From sequence record MT446413.1: a DNA stretch of 64,000 bases; one strand, given 5' to 3'. Every line of letters begins with the position of its first letter. The stretch's first letter is position 1. The stretch is from Escherichia virus TH42. A program made the position numbers and the translations under genes. Below are positions 24,260 to 36,553 of this stretch, piece after piece. Under the pieces are notes generated by a model that was given only the letters and a program-made list of their open reading frames with translations, ran no database searches and was not told the origin of the DNA.

Positions 24260-25318
24260 ATGGCAAATCCAACTTTATTTGTATCTTACGACCAGAACGG
24301 TAAAAAACTTTCTTTTGCTAACTGGATTTCTGTCCTCTCTCCGCAAGATACTCCGTTTGTGTCTATGACTGGTAAAGAGTCTATCAACCAGACTATTTTC
24401 AGCTGGCAGACCGATGCACTGGCAAGTGTTGATGCTAACAACGCACACGTTGAAGGCTCTCGCGCTGATGACGGTGAAATGCAACCGACTGTTATCAAAT
24501 CTAACGTAACTCAGATCCTGCGTAAAGTAGTTCGTGTTTCTGATACTGCTAACACCACCGCTAACTACGGTCGTGGTCGTGAACTGATGTATCAGCTGGA
24601 GAAGAAAGGTAAAGAGATTAAACGTGACCTCGAGAAAATCTTGCTGTCCGGTCAGGCTCGTACCGACGTTCTGGCTGACCAGTATCTGACTAACTCAGCA
24701 GCTGATCCTGCTCTGGCTGGTCTGAATGACACTCATGCAGCTCGTAAGACTGGTGCTTTCCAGTTCCTGTGTGCCCATGGTGGTCTGTCTGGTAGCGTTG
24801 TTGATAAGACTAAGAACGGTCCTGCTGACCCGGATACCGGTGCAGTAACTGTTAAAGTTGCACAGAACGCATCTAACCCTACCACTAACGTAGGTTTTGA
24901 TGAAGCAGATATCTTTGATATGACCCTTCAGCTGTATACCGCAGGTTCTGAAGCTGATATCATCATGATTAACCCTGCTCACGCTAGCGTTTTCGCTAAG
25001 CTGCAGGAAAACTCTGTTGGTTCTCGTCAGCGTATCTTTGAGAACACTAAACAATTCATCTACGAAGTTAATAGCATCACCGACCCGCTGGGTCAGAGTT
25101 ATAAAATCATCGTTAACCGTTGGATGCCTACTGATGCAGTTTACTTCTTCCGTAGCTCTGATTGGACGCAGATGGTTCTTCGTGCACCGAAGCGTACTGA
25201 ACTGGCTAAAGACGGTTCTTACGAGAAGTGGATGATCGAGATGGAAGTTGGTCTGCGTCACCGCAACCCGTATGCTTCCGGTGTTCTGTTCACTGCTGCG
25301 GGAAAGGTAGCGGCGTAA
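24260..25318 (+). CDS. major capsid protein
   Basis: 352 aa, strong RBS, head-module position, frameshift signal at 3' end. Confidence 0.75.
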   Translation: MANPTLFVSYDQNGKKLSFANWISVLSPQDTPFVSMTGKESINQTIFSWQTDALASVDANNAHVEGSRADDGEMQPTVIKSNVTQILRKVVRVSDTANTTANYGRGRELMYQLEKKGKEIKRDLEKILLSGQARTDVLADQYLTNSAADPALAGLNDTHAARKTGAFQFLCAHGGLSGSVVDKTKNGPADPDTGAVTVKVAQNASNPTTNVGFDEADIFDMTLQLYTAGSEADIIMINPAHASVFAKLQENSVGSRQRIFENTKQFIYEVNSITDPLGQSYKIIVNRWMPTDAVYFFRSSDWTQMVLRAPKRTELAKDGSYEKWMIEMEVGLRHRNPYASGVLFTAAGKVAA

Positions 25319-25339
25319 CAGTTGACAGCGTAACTGTTA
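25300..25339 (+). promoter_or_regulatory. programmed -1 ribosomal frameshift signal
   Basis: Slippery heptamer G_GGA_AAG (X_XXY_YYZ in capsid frame) at 25300-25306, 10 nt before capsid stop; 7-bp hairpin AACAGTT/AACTGTT at 25318-25339. Confidence 0.55.
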
Positions 25340-26121
25340 GCCCTGCGTCAGTGGCAAGTCTACTGACCGGGGCTACCCAACAGTTTACAGCTCAAGCAGA
25401 ACTAAGCGACGGCTCCACATCAACTACTGGCTTTGATTGGTCAGTATCCGGTGGTGGGGCTATTTCTGCTTCTGGACTGTTCACTGCTCCGGGTTCGCCT
25501 CAAACCGCTGATATCACAGTGACTGCTACGCTTAAAGGTGTATCAAGTACTGCCGTTATTTCGGAAATTAAAGCTCCAATCCCTGACCCAGCTTCCATTG
25601 CTGTAACTGGGGGTGGTCTAACTGGTGATACTCTCACCATAACTGTTCCAGATGCTACCAGCCTGACTGCTTCTGTATCTCCTGCTGGTGCACCTCAAGG
25701 TGTTACTTGGGAAATTGCAGATCCGACTAAGGCTACGGTAACAACTGCTGGTCGTGTAACTGCTGTTGCAGCAGGTAGCACTACCCTTACAGTTAAATCT
25801 TCTACTAAACCTTCTGTCACTAAAGTGATTAATGTTGTTGTCAACCCCCAGCCTCCAACTATCGCGGCTAAAGCTGCTATTACTGGAAAATCTGGTGGAG
25901 ACAGTGTCGCTTTTACAGACATGTTTACTGTTCAACGCTCAGCTGCTAGTGACTATAATTTTGTAGTAACTCCATCTGCTGCTGGTACAGTGAATGCTGC
26001 TGGTCAGCTCACTTTAGCTGGTACGGCTAGCGGTAACGTAACTGTTAAAGCTACTCATAAAACTCAGACCTCAGTAACTGCAACTTCTACTATCACTGTT
26101 GTGGAATCAGGGTTACCCTGA
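25300..26121 (+). CDS. Ig-like domain C-terminal extension of capsid protein (-1 frameshift product)
   Basis: -1 frame is open from the slippery site to 26121; Thr/Ser/Val/Ala-rich beta-strand-like sequence typical of Ig-like decoration domains; the Met at 25228 lies inside the capsid gene and is unlikely to be an independent start. Confidence 0.55.
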   Translation, partial: GKGSGVTVDSVTVSPASVASLLTGATQQFTAQAELSDGSTSTTGFDWSVSGGGAISASGLFTAPGSPQTADITVTATLKGVSSTAVISEIKAPIPDPASIAVTGGGLTGDTLTITVPDATSLTASVSPAGAPQGVTWEIADPTKATVTTAGRVTAVAAGSTTLTVKSSTKPSVTKVINVVVNPQPPTIAAKAAITGKSGGDSVAFTDMFTVQRSAASDYNFVVTPSAAGTVNAAGQLTLAGTASGNVTVKATHKTQTSVTATSTITVVESGLP

Positions 26122-27033: not shown

Positions 27034-29667
27034 ATGATCGTTTATAACAACCAAGAACCTACTACAGTAAATAATGTAGGCCAATTTGGTGCAACAGAAG
27101 GCTCTATCGGAGCCTATAAACAAGCAGCTGAGTATGCTGCTGATTCTAAATATTGGGCACTTTTAGCTGAGTCTAAGTTTGGTACAGTTGATGATCTTAT
27201 TGCTGAAGTAGAGAAACTTTATAAGCAAGGTATTCTATTACAGCAAGATATTGAAGATCTGAAACAGGACTTTAAAGATCAAGATGCTCGACTGATGCAA
27301 CTGATTGCACAGACTAACGCAGCTGTTGCTAATGCTAACAACTCTATTGCTTTGATTAACCAAAAACTGATTGAAGTCGATCAGCAACTTGATATCCTGT
27401 TGGCTATGAAAGTTACAGTGACCACTCTTCCTCCGGGTTCTGAAGCTACTGGTTCTTTCAATAACCAAACTGGTGAAATCAAGCTAGGTATTCCTGAAGG
27501 TGAGCCGGGTCGTGATGGTTCTGTAACCGACTTAAACACTGCCCCAACGGGGGTTCCAGAAGCAGGGGATATTGGTTTTTATGTTGACCCTGATGACAAC
27601 AAAGTGTATAAAACCAGCCTCAGTAATATCGCTAACTTAATCCCTTCTGTTCGTTCTATCAAAGTTAATGATGGTCCAGAACAAACTGGAGATGTAGCCC
27701 TTACTCTTGATAAGAACGTTGTTGGCCTAGGTAACGTTCTGAACGTTGCTCAATATAGTCGTCAAGAGATTAATGACAAATTCGATAAACCTATTAAAAT
27801 ATATCAAACTAAAGCTGATGCTGATGCAAATGCTCAATATCGTCAAACAGGCGAATCTGTTATGGTTTGGGAAAACACTCAATATGTTTTCTACACCGTT
27901 TCAGCTAATAAAACACTAATTCCAGCTAAAACCGAAGGTCGTATTATTACAGTTAACTCACGATCTCCTGACTCATCTGGCAACATTGATATTACTATTC
28001 CTACAGGGAACCCTTCTTTGTATCTCGGTGAGATGGTTATGTTCCCATATGACCCAGCTAAGAATATCTCTTACCCCGGTGTACTACCTGCTGATGGTCG
28101 CTTGGTTTCTAAGGAAAGTGCTTTAGATTTAGGTCCATCTTTGGTCAGTGGCCAATTACCAGTAGTTAGTGAAACTGAATGGCAGTCCGGTGCTAAGCAG
28201 TATTTCTCTTGGGGTAAACTGGCTGATGGTTTTACTGATGCAGACTCTAGCAACTTCATCAGCATCCGACTTCCAGATTGGACTGGTGGGGAAGCTATTC
28301 GTGCTCCAGACGCTGACAAAGATTCTCAATATGACGGGTCTGTTCAATCTCAGAAACCTTATGTGGTTACTGTTAACAATCAAGCTCCTGATGAAGCTAC
28401 AGGTAATGTTACTATTTCTAGAACTACTCTAGGAGCTGCTTCTTCTGGTGCAAACTCAGACATAACCTCTATTACAGGACTTACGACTGCTCTCTCTGTT
28501 TCTCAGGGTGGTACAGGTGGTAAGACAGCAACCGAAGCCCGTGGAAATTTAGGGTTGGATAAGATTGATCAACAGGAATCTGAAACTAAGATTTTATCCC
28601 CTGACAAAAGTACTTACATGTTTGTAGATAATGCCGGCTGGGGTTGTTATAATAACACAACAGGAACAGTTGCACTTACTGTAGAACGTGGAGGCACTGG
28701 AGCTACTGATGCTGCTATCGCTAGAACAAATTTAGGCCTTGGCTCAATTTCTACCTTAAGCAACGTCCCTGTTGCTAGTGGTGGTACAGGTGCAACTAAT
28801 GCAGCTGGAGCAAGAACTAATCTTGGATTAGGGAACATCTCTACACTAAATAACGTCCCTGTTGCTAGTGGTGGTACAGGTGCAACTAATGCAGCTGGAG
28901 CAAGAACTAATCTTGGATTAGGCAACTCAGCCACAATGAACACTGGAACAAATAGTGATAACGTTCTTAAGGTAGGTGATTTTGGTATTGGGAGACCTGA
29001 TGGTGCTTTAGTTTTTGATACAACGTCCCAAGACGCCCTTCTTGCATCACTTGGCAACTACGGTCTTAGTGTCTTTAGAAATAACCAACAAATTCCAGCT
29101 CCTTGGGACATATGGAATTATTCCTCAAACCTTTTCTTTAAGGCAGGTGATACGTACAGTATGATAAGTATCCCATTTGAGAGTGCTGGCAAGATAAAAG
29201 TTTTTGGTGGTGCTGAGGGGCAGGGATGGAAAACTTCGAGGACGGTATACGATACCGTAAATACAACTGTTGACGTCAATGGTTTTATTAAAGCAGCGTC
29301 ACCAATAGTAAAAGTGTTTCATGATGGAAGTTTTGAAACAAATGAACAATCAGATGGAGTTAGTGTTAAAAGAATTTCAGCTGGAGTGTATTTAGTTTCA
29401 GGATGCCTAGGTCTCAATTCAGATGCAGGGTGGGGTGGGGTTAATGGTGGTTTTGAGATACCGTGTGATATTAACAAACAAGCGAAAGTATGGCTTGATT
29501 ACGAAGTGAAAGAAGATGGTTCTATTCTGGTAAAAACTTACCACAGAACACATCCTACTTCTCCCGTCTTTGCTCGTAATGAGATTGAAGGATATTCTGA
29601 TGGGGACCCTATTGACATACCGAAAGATACTTTCATCTCTGTTCGTATTGAAATGCCATCTAAGTAA
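27034..29667 (+). CDS. tail fibre/tail protein with internal tandem repeat (877 aa)
   Basis: Repeated peptide VPVASGGTGATNAAGARTNLGLG encoded by a 90-bp tandem duplication; own terminator. Confidence 0.6.
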   Translation: MIVYNNQEPTTVNNVGQFGATEGSIGAYKQAAEYAADSKYWALLAESKFGTVDDLIAEVEKLYKQGILLQQDIEDLKQDFKDQDARLMQLIAQTNAAVANANNSIALINQKLIEVDQQLDILLAMKVTVTTLPPGSEATGSFNNQTGEIKLGIPEGEPGRDGSVTDLNTAPTGVPEAGDIGFYVDPDDNKVYKTSLSNIANLIPSVRSIKVNDGPEQTGDVALTLDKNVVGLGNVLNVAQYSRQEINDKFDKPIKIYQTKADADANAQYRQTGESVMVWENTQYVFYTVSANKTLIPAKTEGRIITVNSRSPDSSGNIDITIPTGNPSLYLGEMVMFPYDPAKNISYPGVLPADGRLVSKESALDLGPSLVSGQLPVVSETEWQSGAKQYFSWGKLADGFTDADSSNFISIRLPDWTGGEAIRAPDADKDSQYDGSVQSQKPYVVTVNNQAPDEATGNVTISRTTLGAASSGANSDITSITGLTTALSVSQGGTGGKTATEARGNLGLDKIDQQESETKILSPDKSTYMFVDNAGWGCYNNTTGTVALTVERGGTGATDAAIARTNLGLGSISTLSNVPVASGGTGATNAAGARTNLGLGNISTLNNVPVASGGTGATNAAGARTNLGLGNSATMNTGTNSDNVLKVGDFGIGRPDGALVFDTTSQDALLASLGNYGLSVFRNNQQIPAPWDIWNYSSNLFFKAGDTYSMISIPFESAGKIKVFGGAEGQGWKTSRTVYDTVNTTVDVNGFIKAASPIVKVFHDGSFETNEQSDGVSVKRISAGVYLVSGCLGLNSDAGWGGVNGGFEIPCDINKQAKVWLDYEVKEDGSILVKTYHRTHPTSPVFARNEIEGYSDGDPIDIPKDTFISVRIEMPSK
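28741..28920 (+). repeat. 2 x 90-bp tandem direct repeat inside tail-fibre gene
   Basis: 69-nt core AACGTCCCTGTTGCTAGTGGTGGTACAGGTGCAACTAATGCAGCTGGAGCAAGAACTAATCTTGGATTA identical at 28762-28830 and 28852-28920. Confidence 0.85.
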
Positions 29668-29677
29668 AACTAAGAAT

Positions 29678-29700
29678 GCCCTCTCTTCAGAGGGCTTTAT
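29678..29700 (+). terminator. rho-independent terminator
   Basis: GCCCTCT-CTTC-AGAGGGC followed by TTTAT. Confidence 0.6.
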
Positions 29701-29712
29701 GGAGGATTATAA

Positions 29713-31890
29713 ATGTCTAGAGAGTTAATGCCCAAGTCTGGGATAATGATGCCTCATGTTGTAGTATCACGAGATGCTGCTGTTGTCGGTGTATCTACTG
29801 TTGATGGTGCCGCTGGCGCTATCGACCTAACTAATAAATATTTACAGAAGACTGCAGCTGAAAACACCTATATGACAAAAACTGAAGGTGCTACTAAGGT
29901 TTATGTTTCAGACTCTATTGCCCCTATTATGGAAGGTGCTCTGTTTAAATCTGATCCTTTTGTAGCTAATGATGTACCATTCCGTGCTGCTGGGGCTAAT
30001 GGTGTAGAGTCTGTCGATATGATTAAAGTTACACCAGAGAACACTATCAAAATCGGTAGCTACGCTTCTTCTGTTCAGGGTGTAGAAGTTCACACTGCTG
30101 GTCGTCTTCAGGTTGTGGATTTGAATGACGGTGGTGTAGAAACTAAATATCCTGTCTACTCAAAACGGTATCGTCCTGAGATTGATGAACTTCCTTTTGC
30201 AGCGATCGGTTCATATGTCAAGGATTCTAAAGGACGCACTATTGGTGTAACTCGTACTGGTATCAACTCTGATATAACTCAGATGACTCAGAAAGTAACC
30301 TTCACACAACCAGTAACTGTTGCAGATGCTGTAGGAGATTATGATGCAGTTACCTACCGTCAACTTAAGAATCAGGGTGGTGGTTCTGGTGGTCCTACCA
30401 TGAGTGGTATCTCCAACTTTGGTATTGGTGATTTCCATCTTCGTGATAGTCGTGCTTTCATTCCTGCATTCGAAGTTGTATCCGATGGTCAGCTACTGAA
30501 TCGTGCTGATTACCCTGATCTTTGGGCTTATGCCCAGCTGTTAACTCCTATCACAGATGCTGCTTGGTTGGCTGATGCACAGCAACGAGGTAAATATTCA
30601 ACTGGTGATGGTTCTACTACCTTCCGTGTTCCTGATAGGAATGGTGTTCAGAGTGGCTCTCTGAAAGAACTCTTTGCTCGTGGTGATGGTGGTAATAGTA
30701 GTAATAATGGAATGGCTTATGATGCGGCACTTCCTAACATCGTAGGTTACACTGCCCACACTCTTTTAACTGCTGCGAGTAATCAAGGACAGGTTGCTAC
30801 CGATGGAGCTTTTACCTCTACAACCTCAACCTCAGGTGTTTGGCCTTTGTCTGGCGGCGGCGGTCTTTATACCAACATTCAGCTTAACGCTAACAACAGT
30901 GATGCTACTTATGGTCGCTACGGAATCACAGCGAATGCTATCCCTCGTAACTTCATTGGTGTTTGGACTATCCGTGCTCATGGTGGGTTTGTAGCAGCTA
31001 ATACTTCTTGGGCTGTTATTAACAGTGATACCTCTCGACCTTCAGCTGGTTCAAAAGCGACTGGTGGTTCTATCTTATCTCAGTATAAAATAGGCTCTGA
31101 TGTAGAAGCTGAGACTTACTTGAAAACTGATGCTTATATCAACGGAACTTACTACGGAGTTATTGGTGTTATTAACAAAACCAAAGGAGTGACTTCTGAG
31201 CTAACCTTTGGTGATGATGGCATCCTAAACTCTAACAAATACAGAGCAAGGCAAGTCTCGGGTTTGAGTTGGAATAATACAGGAGTTGAGAAGGGTACTT
31301 ATGCAATTGAAGATGTTAACATAGGAACTAACTATAACTTCAACAGTATAATCAGTGCTGCACAATCTTCTAATTCTGGTTACAGAACTTCTACTCATAT
31401 CGGTCAAATTCATAATGACGGTGGCTCTTTTGCTCAATCCTGCTGGCATGTATCAGGAGATGAAACTAACCAATATGGTGTTCGTCTTGCCATCCAACCT
31501 AACTATGAAGATATTTATTACTACTTCTGGGCACCAGATGTTTCTCGAACCTACACTCTTCAGAAGAATGCTGTCTCTGATGAACGTCTTAAGCGTGACA
31601 TTTACGATCTTGATGCGTCTAGGCCTATTGAAATTTTGAAAGGTTTGACTTTCCGTTCCTTTGTCTATAAGGATGATGAAAAGCAGAGAACTCGTCGTGG
31701 TGTTATTGCACAGGAGGCAGAGAAGGTAGAACCTCTGTATGTTAAGACGATTAACTTCTATGACCCTGATGGTAGCAAGAAAGATCAGAAACAGCTGGAT
31801 ACAACTCCTATGCTTCTTGATACAATGGCGGTAGTTCAAGACCTCCTAAAACGTGTTGAAGAGTTAGAAGCTAAACTGGCTGCTAAGTAA
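29713..31890 (+). CDS. tail fibre/tailspike with C-terminal intramolecular chaperone domain
   Basis: 725 aa; C-terminal SDERLKRDIYDL...GLTFRSF...RRGVIAQE resembles the self-cleaving chaperone domain of endosialidase-type fibres (recalled, not searched). Confidence 0.6.
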   Translation: MSRELMPKSGIMMPHVVVSRDAAVVGVSTVDGAAGAIDLTNKYLQKTAAENTYMTKTEGATKVYVSDSIAPIMEGALFKSDPFVANDVPFRAAGANGVESVDMIKVTPENTIKIGSYASSVQGVEVHTAGRLQVVDLNDGGVETKYPVYSKRYRPEIDELPFAAIGSYVKDSKGRTIGVTRTGINSDITQMTQKVTFTQPVTVADAVGDYDAVTYRQLKNQGGGSGGPTMSGISNFGIGDFHLRDSRAFIPAFEVVSDGQLLNRADYPDLWAYAQLLTPITDAAWLADAQQRGKYSTGDGSTTFRVPDRNGVQSGSLKELFARGDGGNSSNNGMAYDAALPNIVGYTAHTLLTAASNQGQVATDGAFTSTTSTSGVWPLSGGGGLYTNIQLNANNSDATYGRYGITANAIPRNFIGVWTIRAHGGFVAANTSWAVINSDTSRPSAGSKATGGSILSQYKIGSDVEAETYLKTDAYINGTYYGVIGVINKTKGVTSELTFGDDGILNSNKYRARQVSGLSWNNTGVEKGTYAIEDVNIGTNYNFNSIISAAQSSNSGYRTSTHIGQIHNDGGSFAQSCWHVSGDETNQYGVRLAIQPNYEDIYYYFWAPDVSRTYTLQKNAVSDERLKRDIYDLDASRPIEILKGLTFRSFVYKDDEKQRTRRGVIAQEAEKVEPLYVKTINFYDPDGSKKDQKQLDTTPMLLDTMAVVQDLLKRVEELEAKLAAK

Positions 31891-31896
31891 AGGACT

Positions 31897-31914
31897 GCCC
31901 CTTCGGGGGCTTTT
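31897..31914 (+). terminator. rho-independent terminator
   Basis: GCCCC-TTCG-GGGGC followed by TTTT. Confidence 0.7.
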
Positions 31915-31983: not shown

Positions 31984-32202
31984 ATGAAATTAATGAAACA
32001 AATCACATATGGACTGGCTTGCTTAGGTACCGGTTTTGTAGTATCTACAGCAATCCCTGTTAGTGCTGTCAGCTCCCATTCAGTTATTGAAGCTCCAGTA
32101 GAAAAACTTAGCGCTGAATGTAAGCAAAGAACTATCCAGAATAATCTCGTAGTTATTTGTCCAGATGCCCAATCTTCAGCGTTGAGAAAAGTTCTACCTT
32201 GA
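31984..32202 (+). CDS. small membrane protein, holin candidate (72 aa)
   Basis: Strong RBS, one hydrophobic segment, immediately upstream of lysozyme gene. Confidence 0.35.
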   Translation: MKLMKQITYGLACLGTGFVVSTAIPVSAVSSHSVIEAPVEKLSAECKQRTIQNNLVVICPDAQSSALRKVLP

Positions 32203-32230
32203 TACAATAATAAAAATAGAGGAGGTCAAG

Positions 32231-32722
32231 ATGGACGCTATCGCATTGCCACCTGTACAGCATAATTTAAGTCCTGAGGGTTTGGAGTTCATTATGAAGC
32301 ATGAAGGTATGAGAACCCGTGCTTATCAAGACTCCGCTGGCATATGGACTATATGTGTCGGAGCAACGCGCGATATGAATGGGTATCCAGTCAGAAAAGG
32401 ATTAACGTATTCTATAGAGGATTGTTTGATATTACTAGATCGTGACACTCAAGACTCTGTTCGTGCTACTCAGAAAAATATAAGGGTTCCTTTGTTTACT
32501 AATGAGTTTGATGCTTTAACCTCTTTCAACTTTAATGTTGGTGGTACAGCTCTCGCTACTTCTAAACTAAGGAAAGTGATCAACGGAGATGTTAGAGGTG
32601 ATGTTTACTCTGAGTTTTTGCGTTGGGATAAAATAACAGTCAGAGGTGTAAAACAACAGAGTCCGGGACTTCACAACCGAAGGGTTGCAGAAGCAGACCT
32701 ATACACCACAGGTAAATACTAA
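32231..32722 (+). CDS. lysozyme (GH24, T4-lysozyme-like)
   Basis: HEGMRTRAYQDSAGIWTICVGAT matches the E...D...T catalytic-region pattern of lambda R / T4 e-type lysozymes. Confidence 0.8.
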   Translation: MDAIALPPVQHNLSPEGLEFIMKHEGMRTRAYQDSAGIWTICVGATRDMNGYPVRKGLTYSIEDCLILLDRDTQDSVRATQKNIRVPLFTNEFDALTSFNFNVGGTALATSKLRKVINGDVRGDVYSEFLRWDKITVRGVKQQSPGLHNRRVAEADLYTTGKY

Positions 32723-32734
32723 TGGAGGTGCCTT

Positions 32735-33538
32735 TTGGCTATTGAAACTACAGCGGTAGTAACTACCGATTTAAACCCCCTGTACCCTCGTGACAGGGAT
32801 TATATTTATGAAGGGGCGGCTCAACTCCGCCTTATCAAACAAGTCTTGATTAACACATTCCCTAACATCACTGAACCAGTGAACCTTTCTTCTGAATCCT
32901 TTAAGGCTTTGTCAGAGAAAATCACTTTTACTGGTGATGCTATGGATGTTGGTAATCTGATGATTAAAAACCTGACTCCGGGCACTGGTGATAAAGATGC
33001 TGTAACCAAAGGTCAGATGGAAGCTTTCATGTTGAATTGGATGCAGAATAAACTATATCGTATTGGTGCTTACTACATCACTGAAGAAGATATTAACCCC
33101 GGTGATTCTAGCTCTCTCGGCTTTGGCTCTTGGGCTAAAGTTACTGGTGTTGTTATGGGTACTGGTGTTGTCAACCCCGATGGGTCTGTTCCTAACGCCC
33201 AACGTGTTGAGTTCCAAGCAGGCGGTACAGGTGGTCGTGTGTTTAATACAGTTCGTACTGAGAATATGCCTCTAACTACAATCAATGGTTCTAGTTTCCA
33301 AGTTAGCTCCTACTCTCACGCACACAACATTACGATGGGCCGAGGGGATGCTAGTGGTCATAACAGCAGCCCTAACTGGTATAGTCCGGGTGGTGGTTAT
33401 ACTCAAGTAACTGACACAAACACTCACTCACACTCAATCTCAGGTTCTGTTAGTTTTGGTTATGATGACATTTCTCGTCAACCTATCAACACATTACCGC
33501 CATTCCGAGCAGCACATATTTGGAGACGTATTAGCTAA
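32735..33538 (+). CDS. putative tail protein (267 aa)
   Basis: TTG start 6 nt after GGAGG; located in tail module. Confidence 0.45.
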   Translation: MAIETTAVVTTDLNPLYPRDRDYIYEGAAQLRLIKQVLINTFPNITEPVNLSSESFKALSEKITFTGDAMDVGNLMIKNLTPGTGDKDAVTKGQMEAFMLNWMQNKLYRIGAYYITEEDINPGDSSSLGFGSWAKVTGVVMGTGVVNPDGSVPNAQRVEFQAGGTGGRVFNTVRTENMPLTTINGSSFQVSSYSHAHNITMGRGDASGHNSSPNWYSPGGGYTQVTDTNTHSHSISGSVSFGYDDISRQPINTLPPFRAAHIWRRIS

Positions 33539-33547
33539 GGAGGTAGC

Positions 33548-36500
33548 ATGGCTCTCTATCCAATTAAATCACTAGGCGCAGTTGGGGTTATCGCTGACCA
33601 AGCACCTACTGACTTAGCACCAAATGCTTTCACTAACGCTATTAATGCTCGGTTTGTTGAGCAGAGGGTCTTTAAGACGGGGGGCAATGCCCCTCTTTCT
33701 TATGTAGACGAAGATAAAGATCTGACTCCTCTCTCATTCCTTTCAATGCCTTTCGACTATTATAGCGCAGGTAATAGCTTTCTTGTGGTAGGTACAGATA
33801 AGAAACTGTATAAACTTACCGACGAGAGTTTAACTGATATCAGCCGTAAGGTTGCTACAGCGACAAAGAAAGCATCAGCGACAATTAAGATTTATCCAGT
33901 AGTCTCAAATATTGTTCCTAAAGAGACTTCTGTATCTATGAATTTTAACCAGACCAAGATTCTCGAAGTTGAAGTCACCCCTACAGATGCTCAAAATGCT
34001 AATCTAGTTTGGGAAGTAAGCAACTCTTCTTACGGCAGTATTGAAGTTGACCCTACTGACTCCAAGAAGGCTACCCTAACTTCTAAGTCTGTTGAAGGTA
34101 ATTTAGTTGTGACAGTGAGCACATCTGATGAATCTATCTCAGCTCAGATTGCAGTTAATATCATTGATGGTGATTCAGGTATCTATTTGAGCCAAGACAC
34201 TTTGACTATGCGTAAAGGTGGTACATCAACCCTTACAGCAATTACAGGCAAACCGTCTGTAACTTGGTCTTCCTCTAACCCATCGTTAGTTTCTGTTTCT
34301 CCTAATGCTAATACAAAGACAGTTGTTCTTACAGCTCTTGGAGAAGGACAGGTAACTATAACTGCTGATAATGAGACAAAGACTGCATCTTGTATAGTAA
34401 CAGCAATACCTCAAATTGATAGCATCACATTAAGTCAGACAGATATTCAAATGAGCCGTGGTACTCAGTACATCCTAACTGCAACAGTTAGTCCAGCTAA
34501 CGCACCCAACCAAACAATCACTTGGACTTCTTCTAATACCAACATTGCTACAGTAAGTGGTACAGGTACAGAAGCTACAATAACTGGATTGCTTGCAGGG
34601 TATACAGAGATTACAGCAGTTACAGCGGAAGGAGGTCGTTCAGCAGTTTGTACTGTACGTGTTGATTTATCTTCTCGTCTGGCAAGTAGGGCTATGTCAG
34701 CAATGACTATCACTACAGAAGCTCCTGTAGAAGAACCAATGGTTGGCTCAGAAGAGGTAACATACTTCGACACTGATAACATTGGTATTGATACGACAGG
34801 AATGGCAGAAGGGAATAACTTCTACGACTACTCTAACGTCATGGACTTGGAAGGTTTTGGTAGAGCAGCAATGCTTGCTAATGATCCACCTTTGACTGGA
34901 GTTACTCTTGATGTTATTGATGCCTCTCTTGATGTAGGTGAAGAGATTGTTATCACAGCTACAGCATCTCCTACTGGAAGCTATACTTACAAGTGGACAG
35001 TTGATAAGAGTGGTTATGTTTCTACTACTTCTACAACTGACTCAACTTTGAAACTTACTGCTATTCGTAAGGGTGAGGTTAAAGTGACTTGTACTGTAAG
35101 CCAGATGGTTCAGAAAGACTATGATGCGTTTGAAGATTATCCTTGGTATCATGCGATCATCTCTAACTGTGCAGTAGCAACTACTCACTACGAAACTCCT
35201 CAGGTTAAGGAATTCGATTCTGAATACTTCACTGATCTTCCGGGATGGGGTGAGCAGACGGTTGTTGATGCAGATGGTAATCCTTCTGTTAAGAAGTATA
35301 ACTGGAAATGTGAACGAGTGAGAGCTTTTAACAATAGACTGTTTGCTCTGAATATGAGAGAGTCTAATGCCTCTGGTGTTACTACTCACTACCCTCTTCG
35401 TTTGCGTTGGTCTAACTTTGCAGAGGAAAACAAAGCCCCTCAGCTTTGGGATGATTATGCATATGACCGAGCAGTGAGTTCTGACCTAGCAGCTAACATC
35501 GTAGGACAGACAGAAGCTCTTGAGAATGGTTATGCAGGATATATTGATTTGGCTGACTCTAATGGTAGTTTGTTAGATGTTCTTCCTCTGAAAGATTATC
35601 TGTTCGTTTACACTGAGTTTGAAACTTATATCGGCTCTCCTACCAACAACACCTATCAGCCTTTGATGTTTAAAAAGCTGTTTAACGATTCAGGAATACT
35701 TGCTCCTGAGTGTGTGGTGGAAGTTGAAGGTGGTCACTTTGTGGTAACTCAGAACGACGTCATTCTACACAATGGTGCTTCTAAGAAATCTATTGCTTCT
35801 AACCGAGTGAAGAACATGCTCATTAATGAGATTTGTCTGGTGAACCCAATTGCTACACGAGTTCATCTTCATCAGGATAAGAAAGAAGTATGGGTTCTTT
35901 ATGTAGGTCCGGGTGAGCCTAAGGAAAGTTTTGCCTGTACTAAAGCAGCAGTATGGAATTATGAGTTCGACACTTGGTCTTTCCGTACGATTCCTTATTC
36001 TTATTGTATCGGTCTTGTTGATCCTCCGGTTCTGGAACGCGGTCCTATCTGGGCTGATTTCCAAGAGATCACTTGGGATGACCCTTCGATTGACAAACTG
36101 GTGTGGAGAAAAGATGCAACTAACTTCCGTCAGCGAGTTACAATCATAGGTTCTTTCTTGAAAGGATTCTACCAAGTTGATATAGGAGCTTTGGATTATA
36201 TCTATGACAGAACAAACGATGTGGTTATAGAGAAGCCTCTGGAAATGAGACTAGAGAGAACGGGGATTGATTTTGATAACGTCACTAATGAATGGAATCA
36301 GAAACACATTAACCGATTTAGACCTCAAGTAACAGGAACGGGGACTTATACTTTTGAAGCAGGTGGTAGTCAATTCTCTAATGAGTATGGACACAACCAC
36401 TCTACTAAAGAGTTTAGGGTTGGTGTGGATCGTCACGTAGCAGTCAGACTGAACCATCCATACCTATTCTATAATGTTATAGATAATGATGTTAACAGTA

Positions 36501-36553
36501 ATGCGTCTATGAATGGTTTAACCATAGAGTTTGCTGTTGGCGGTCGAAGATAA
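33548..36553 (+). CDS. large tail/structural protein with Ig-like repeats (1001 aa)
   Basis: Several Thr/Ser/Val-rich beta-strand repeats in N-terminal third; own terminator. Confidence 0.6.
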   Translation: MALYPIKSLGAVGVIADQAPTDLAPNAFTNAINARFVEQRVFKTGGNAPLSYVDEDKDLTPLSFLSMPFDYYSAGNSFLVVGTDKKLYKLTDESLTDISRKVATATKKASATIKIYPVVSNIVPKETSVSMNFNQTKILEVEVTPTDAQNANLVWEVSNSSYGSIEVDPTDSKKATLTSKSVEGNLVVTVSTSDESISAQIAVNIIDGDSGIYLSQDTLTMRKGGTSTLTAITGKPSVTWSSSNPSLVSVSPNANTKTVVLTALGEGQVTITADNETKTASCIVTAIPQIDSITLSQTDIQMSRGTQYILTATVSPANAPNQTITWTSSNTNIATVSGTGTEATITGLLAGYTEITAVTAEGGRSAVCTVRVDLSSRLASRAMSAMTITTEAPVEEPMVGSEEVTYFDTDNIGIDTTGMAEGNNFYDYSNVMDLEGFGRAAMLANDPPLTGVTLDVIDASLDVGEEIVITATASPTGSYTYKWTVDKSGYVSTTSTTDSTLKLTAIRKGEVKVTCTVSQMVQKDYDAFEDYPWYHAIISNCAVATTHYETPQVKEFDSEYFTDLPGWGEQTVVDADGNPSVKKYNWKCERVRAFNNRLFALNMRESNASGVTTHYPLRLRWSNFAEENKAPQLWDDYAYDRAVSSDLAANIVGQTEALENGYAGYIDLADSNGSLLDVLPLKDYLFVYTEFETYIGSPTNNTYQPLMFKKLFNDSGILAPECVVEVEGGHFVVTQNDVILHNGASKKSIASNRVKNMLINEICLVNPIATRVHLHQDKKEVWVLYVGPGEPKESFACTKAAVWNYEFDTWSFRTIPYSYCIGLVDPPVLERGPIWADFQEITWDDPSIDKLVWRKDATNFRQRVTIIGSFLKGFYQVDIGALDYIYDRTNDVVIEKPLEMRLERTGIDFDNVTNEWNQKHINRFRPQVTGTGTYTFEAGGSQFSNEYGHNHSTKEFRVGVDRHVAVRLNHPYLFYNVIDNDVNSNASMNGLTIEFAVGGRR

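Follow-up and report, generated by a model that had tools for sequence, protein, structure and literature searches.

The 725-residue protein encoded at 29713..31890 on the plus strand of a 64,000-nt stretch of Escherichia virus TH42 DNA (record MT446413.1; this whole stretch is called the window here) is most probably the distal long tail fibre of an E. coli podophage belonging to the Gordonclarkvirinae (kuravirus-like), with residues 622-725 forming a Peptidase_S74 intramolecular chaperone (IMC) domain. I put the probability of this reading at about 0.9. Published work already covers the S74 domain family, how it acts, and its occurrence on Gordonclarkvirinae fibres, and nothing found here alters that picture.

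There is little doubt about the gene. An earlier reading, made from the sequence alone, had pointed to a 725-aa fibre ORF, and the ORF is present where it was placed, 725 codons and a stop, delimited by the ORF list, a PHROG match, and orthology. A GGAGG Shine-Dalgarno sequence lies at 29701-29705, with the ATG 8 nt downstream. The family phrog_6921 ("tail fiber protein") covers the whole protein (E 4.7e-264), and orthology to SU10 gp13, phiEco32 gp15, and EP335 gp13 is directly supported, with identities of 60% to the SU10 protein (P0052), 62% to that of EP335 (P0046), and 59% to the "distal long tail fiber" of YF01 (P0056). An identical protein exists in NCBI and in a Logan assembly, where PF13884 has been precomputed for it. 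The 24 kb around the gene shares 94.9% identity with Escherichia phage StefiGeyer_Bas88 and 93.8% with TH43, both Gordonclarkvirinae (kuravirus-like) podophages.

The order of genes is that of Bas88: portal, scaffold, capsid, Ig-like protein, adaptor, proximal fibre, distal fibre, holin, endolysin, short fibre, and nozzle. Immediately upstream of the distal fibre gene is the plus-strand gene for the proximal long tail fibre (27034..29667), an 877-aa orthologue of SU10 gp12 that would carry the distal fibre; it matches phrog_10305 and Pfam Phage_tail_C_2 (E 9.3e-61) and holds the position of Bas88_0008. Downstream come a 72-aa ORF, called holin in the Bas88 annotation (31984..32202), an endolysin (32231..32722; Pfam Phage_lysozyme, E 1.8e-30), the short-fibre gene (32735..33538), and the gene for the nozzle protein (33548..36553). 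The order agrees with that of Bas88_0008 to Bas88_0013. The lysis genes (31984-32722) interrupt the tail module, with the long-fibre genes ahead of them and the short-fibre gene behind, an order kept in Bas88. According to the SU10 cryo-EM paper, the long fibre consists of gp12 and gp13, the latter being the distal protein on a proximal fibre of gp12.

Some features of the window near the gene are recorded here for their own sake. GC-rich hairpins stand before the distal fibre gene (GCCCTCT-CTTC-AGAGGGC-TTT, 29678-29698) and after it (GCCCC-TTCG-GGGGC-TTTT, 31897-31914). A scan for consensus terminators did not call these plus-strand hairpins, because their T-runs are short; leaky termination or a part in RNA stability may be their role. 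The proximal fibre gene contains a near-perfect 90-nt tandem duplication at 28762-28926 (1.8 copies, 98% match) encoding a 30-aa repeat, NVPVASGGTGATNAAGARTNLGLGNISTLN, and a third, more diverged copy is found just upstream in the protein. Further upstream, the major capsid gene (24260..25318) ends GCG GGA AAG GTA GCG GCG TAA, with a slippery heptamer, G GGA AAG, at 25300-25306, seven codons ahead of the stop. The -1 frame is open from 25228 to 26121, and a -1 slip would enter the Big_2/Ig-like ORF, giving an extended capsid isoform of about 620 aa versus 352 aa. A capsid -1 frameshift has already been published for the kuravirus group (YF01 paper, PMC9965538), and the YF01 record annotates a joined CDS, while Bas88 annotates the Ig protein as a separate gene with a GTG start. 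The capsid extension in TH42 is much shorter than its counterpart in Bas88 (a 527-aa Ig protein) or YF01 (an 892-aa isoform).

The chaperone domain occupies 31576..31887 on the plus strand and begins with the motif SDERLKRDIYDL at residue 622. A search of the kind the sequence-only reading had suggested finds PF13884 (Peptidase_S74, "Chaperone of endosialidase") on residues 622-675. The match takes in profile positions 1-55 of 58, and its score of 46.5 bits (E 4.6e-12) against a curated gathering cutoff of 22 puts it well past chance. NCBIfam gives no match to the protein. That reading had likened the C-terminus to the self-cleaving chaperone of endosialidase-type fibres, and on this the S74 match, the conserved dyad, and the predicted fold agree. 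Its boundaries need adjusting: the interval it gave, 31500-31890, contains the domain but starts about 26 residues early, residues 596-621 being part of the upstream receptor-binding domain, and what it called the last 120 residues is indeed C-terminal but comes down to the last 104 (of 725), in a protein that matches tail-fibre PHROGs from end to end.

Relatives of the domain are numerous. A word-indexed search for homologues of the C-terminal 129 aa gave no more than 4 proteins, and exhaustive searches of representatives and searches with the full-length protein were used instead. Exhaustive HMMER with residues 597-725 against 1.84 billion representatives gave 773 proteins at E<=0.001, and tblastn found the S74 module in 602 of 50,697 phage records, among them kuraviruses, T5-like phages, Wifcevirus, Dhillonvirus, Klebsiella phages, and others. 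When the family profile was run against PDB sequences, only fibre or chaperone chains came back: LtfA (8HQZ_d, 4e-152), 7DC3 (1.6e-8), and then 8JOV, 6F45, and 3GUD.

The residues on which self-cleavage would depend are in place. Ser622 (codon 31576..31578, plus strand) is the predicted nucleophile at the scissile site and Lys627 (31591..31593, plus strand) the predicted general base, five positions on; the spacing, S622-D-E-R-L-K627, is that of the family. They align with Ser621 and Lys626 of EP335 and correspond by motif to Ser1264 and Lys1269 of T5 pb1. Ser622, Lys627, Gly663, and Ala666 are invariant in 118 of 118 full-length fibre homologues. Among 145 divergent representatives, drawn from clusters at <=50% identity, every one has Lys at column 627, whereas at column 622 there are 136 with Ser, 8 with Cys, and a single one with Ala. 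The TH42 fibre has the consensus residue at 11 of the 11 columns conserved at 90% or more. The eight proteins with cysteine (P0149, P0157, P0168, P0222, P0226, P0242, P0254, P0261) keep the lysine in a C-D-x-x-x-K motif, and in them self-cleavage could run on a Cys/Lys pair instead; the sole protein with alanine is P0225.

The predicted fold argues the same way and, with the sequence matches, supports family membership directly. An AlphaFold2 monomer model of residues 420-725 was built from a 62-sequence alignment (mean pLDDT 72.8; model residue number is protein residue minus 419). Confidence is high in the chaperone region (pLDDT 86-94), and the RBD2 part contains a low-confidence stretch at model residues 89-126. 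The modelled elements are a helix at 636-643, strands at 647-651 and 660-664, a helix at 666-672, a beta-hairpin at 677-695, and a C-terminal helix at 697-724, that is, the alpha/beta body, hairpin, and long terminal helix of an IMC fold. By analogy with T5 pb1, the hairpin (31741..31797, plus strand; model strands E258-264 and E270-276) is a candidate "tentacle". The terminal helix (31801..31884, plus strand; model helix H278-305, pLDDT >87) is probably a trimeric coiled coil, if T5 pb1 and K1F are a guide; in its best heptad register, 6 of the 8 a/d sites are occupied by L, V, or M. Foldseek matched the model to the MyRF ICA domain 7DC3 (probability 1.00, target TM 0.59-0.63) and to the K1F "Intramolecular Chaperone" 3GW6 (probability 0.98) in the PDB.

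I propose that the fibre matures as follows, taking its cleavage, the chaperone role, trimerisation, and the receptor by analogy from characterised family members (T5 pb1, K1F). Three nascent chains would join by way of their chaperone domains, using both the C-terminal helix (697-724) and the alpha/beta body. The chaperone trimer would set the register and so serve as template while the putative T5-like RBD2 (441-621) folds into an intertwined trimer. Correct folding would bring Ser622 beside Lys627, which activates it, and the chain would be cut at Ser622. A fragment with a computed mass of about 12.0 kDa would be freed, leaving a mature fibre of about 66.3 kDa. Loss of the fragment would unmask the distal tip for binding to a glycan, probably O-antigen.

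There is good precedent for such a scheme. In EP335 gp13, for which Witte et al. 2021 (PMC8217332) predicted a chaperone domain covering the final 114 residues, LC-ESI-MS revealed the loss of an 11.8-kDa C-terminal fragment, and cleavage was mapped between Ser621 and Asp622 (PMC8217332). T5 pb1 is reported to be cut between Thr1263 and Ser1264; the mutation S1264A abolishes cleavage, and the uncleaved form is no competitor in adsorption, which makes it probable that the binding tip is exposed by cleavage. Because the T5 report places the cut before the serine and the EP335 report places it after, the scissile bond in TH42 would be either that between V621 and S622 or that between S622 and D623.

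An alternative view is that the S74 domain is present yet uncleaved, either a structural cap that stays on the virion or a degenerate relic. In T5 pb1, Arg1250, contributed by a neighbouring subunit and acting with Asp1239, serves as folding sensor and oxyanion hole. No conserved column for Arg and Asp residues of this T5/K1F type was found among the 118 homologues in the 20 residues upstream of Ser622, a stretch that varies freely; R612 and D609 are present in the TH42 fibre, and neither is conserved. It also speaks for this view that the chaperone domain is missing altogether from some kuravirus fibres and is truncated in at least one relative, Bas93 (bioRxiv 10.1101/2024.09.12.612763). Against it, the TH42 domain is full length, with Ser622, Lys627, and all 11 highly conserved family positions intact, and cleavage is experimentally established in EP335 gp13, T5 pb1, and K1F. 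An uncleaved domain is therefore unlikely.

Fibres that lack the domain include P0106, P0120, and P0121 (620-621 aa), which have the same anchor and RBD1 followed by another distal module that ends ...NATGVIQSTWRE/G. Their length invites the thought that they are natural truncations at the predicted cleavage site. That idea was rejected: the distal module, ending ...GVIQSTWRG, is a different one, and the agreement in length is therefore coincidence. Judging by these sequences, an intramolecular chaperone is not required by every fibre of the kuravirus-type distal family.

Upstream of the chaperone domain the protein divides into three parts. The N-terminal anchor and shaft (residues 1-200; 29713..30312, plus strand) would dock on the proximal fibre, to go by the literature on phiEco32 gp14/gp15 and LtfA/LtfB. 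Most of its columns are invariant in 60 homologues, and it is 82-100% identical to relatives. Next is a putative Gp12-like receptor-binding domain 1 (RBD1), about residues 201-440 with approximate boundaries (30313..31032, plus strand). It is 85-95% identical to EP335 gp13, in which HHpred assigned residues 236-422 to the T4 gp12 tip (PMC8217332), and the region aligns to DT57C LtfA in 8HQZ; Pfam Collar, at residues 294-311, falls below threshold (E 0.0016, 18.8 bits, cutoff 24). Last comes a putative T5-like receptor-binding domain 2 (RBD2), residues 441-621 (31033..31575, plus strand), a divergent allele.

Mosaicism within the gene is directly observed. DNA identity to TH34 is 99.5% over nucleotides 1-1318 of the gene and then passes beyond the range of megablast, and residues 1-440 are 97-100% identical to the TH34 protein (P0020). 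For RBD2, identity reaches no more than 61% among the best 120 homologues and no more than 59% with any phage record in 50,697 phage genomes. The chaperone domain is 65-71% identical even to those of fibres whose RBD2 is only about 20% identical, which fits a conserved folding module carried on exchangeable binding domains. This pattern agrees with the published modular exchange of RBDs and is the one mildly new point of the analysis. I suggest, tentatively and with the odds somewhat against it, that RBD2 is an unsampled allele recombined onto an anchor and RBD1 of the TH34 type, where it may give a new glycan specificity, and that the chaperone domain may be a universal folding module that doubles as the 3' homology arm for swaps. 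Unsampled here means at most 59-61% identity in the 50,697 phage genomes and the top matches of a 5.8-billion-protein search.

The sequence-only reading had offered a receptor-binding fibre or a depolymerase. The first is supported by orthology to SU10 gp13 and to EP335 gp13, whose GFP fusion bound O157 and O26 cells (PMC8217332). RBD1 resembles the EP335 protein closely (85-95%) and RBD2 hardly does (24% identity). Should specificity lie mainly with RBD1, which is what the BASEL authors propose, then recognition of the O157/O26 type might be common to EP335 and TH42.

On the second, the protein would be an enzyme, a depolymerase or tailspike like the endosialidases, and not a fibre that only binds. 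The thought is a natural one, since endosialidase tailspikes are where S74 chaperone domains were first described; kuraviruses are dependent on O-antigen (bioRxiv 10.1101/2024.09.12.612763), and the divergent RBD2 allele leaves room for an activity that would go unrecognised. It is nonetheless very improbable. Neither Pfam, NCBIfam, the PDB profile search, nor fold searches gave a glycosidase, lyase, or beta-helix domain, and in particular neither a sialidase beta-propeller nor a right-handed beta-helix, and the depolymerase reading is rejected for want of an enzymatic domain. The sole structural relative over the full length is itself a fibre, DT57C LtfA; EP335 gp13 was described as a binding protein (PMC8217332), and the BASEL authors class the distal fibres of Gordonclarkvirinae as lacking enzymatic properties (bioRxiv 10.1101/2024.09.12.612763). 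A chance or compositional match, for example to a generic coiled coil, such as the coiled-coil-like C-terminal helix could draw, is scarcely credible in the face of the Pfam score, the exhaustive HMMER search, the dyad in 145 divergent representatives, and the fold comparison.

A binding fibre that matures by losing its own chaperone would have practical consequences. In annotation, the virion fibre is expected to be about 12 kDa shorter than the gene product. In expression or engineering, the C-terminal domain would be needed for folding and lost afterwards. For engineering the host range of kuraviruses, natural swap points would be the mosaic junction at about residue 440 and the chaperone domain, which is conserved.

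How does the TH42 fibre compare with those already known? EP335 gp13 is the product of the orthologous gene in the same position. Its anchor and Gp12-like RBD1 are 84-95% identical to those of TH42, and its C-terminal chaperone domain has the SDER(L/I)K motif in common, but its chaperone domain is only about 28-34% identical, a point against the proposed reading, and its RBD2, as noted, still less. The low identity of both means that the two phages carry distinct alleles of the distal module, and they may not recognise the same receptor.

The BASEL-completion paper (bioRxiv 10.1101/2024.09.12.612763) describes the distal fibres of Gordonclarkvirinae as "T-shaped", with RBDs often exchanged horizontally. 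The "T-shaped" dual-RBD fibres of Gordonclarkvirinae, Wifcevirus, and Tequintavirus, including SU10 gp13 and Bas87 gp10, have a layout that the TH42 fibre probably shares: anchor, Gp12-like RBD1, T5-like RBD2, and C-terminal chaperone domain. TH42 differs in an RBD2 allele no more than about 60% identical to those of sequenced phages, and the TH42 model is of a monomer, residues 420-725.

The best relative of solved structure is DT57C LtfA (PDB 8HQZ chain d, "L-shaped tail fiber assembly"). The match spans residues 203-723, including the chaperone domain (E 4e-106 with the single sequence, 4e-152 with the profile), and the LtfA chaperone domain has S...K at 959/964. Golomidova et al. 2016 reported autocleavable pfam13884 domains on DT57C LtfA and LtfB, fibres homologous to phiEco32 gp14 and gp15. 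DT57C is a siphophage, however, and its LtfA combines in a single chain of 1076 aa what kuraviruses encode in proximal and distal fibre genes (the phrog_10305 pattern).

More distant are T5 pb1 (4UW7/4UW8), the K1F endosialidase (3GW6), and the GA-1 appendage (3GUD), with only 11-26% sequence identity to the TH42 domain. The upstream cargo differs: T5 has a bullet-shaped domain there, and K1F a triple beta-helix with sialidase. The T5 chaperone domain has 133 residues versus 104 in TH42. The MyRF ICA domain (7DC3) is part of a eukaryotic membrane-bound transcription factor, where cleavage frees a transcription factor rather than a fibre.
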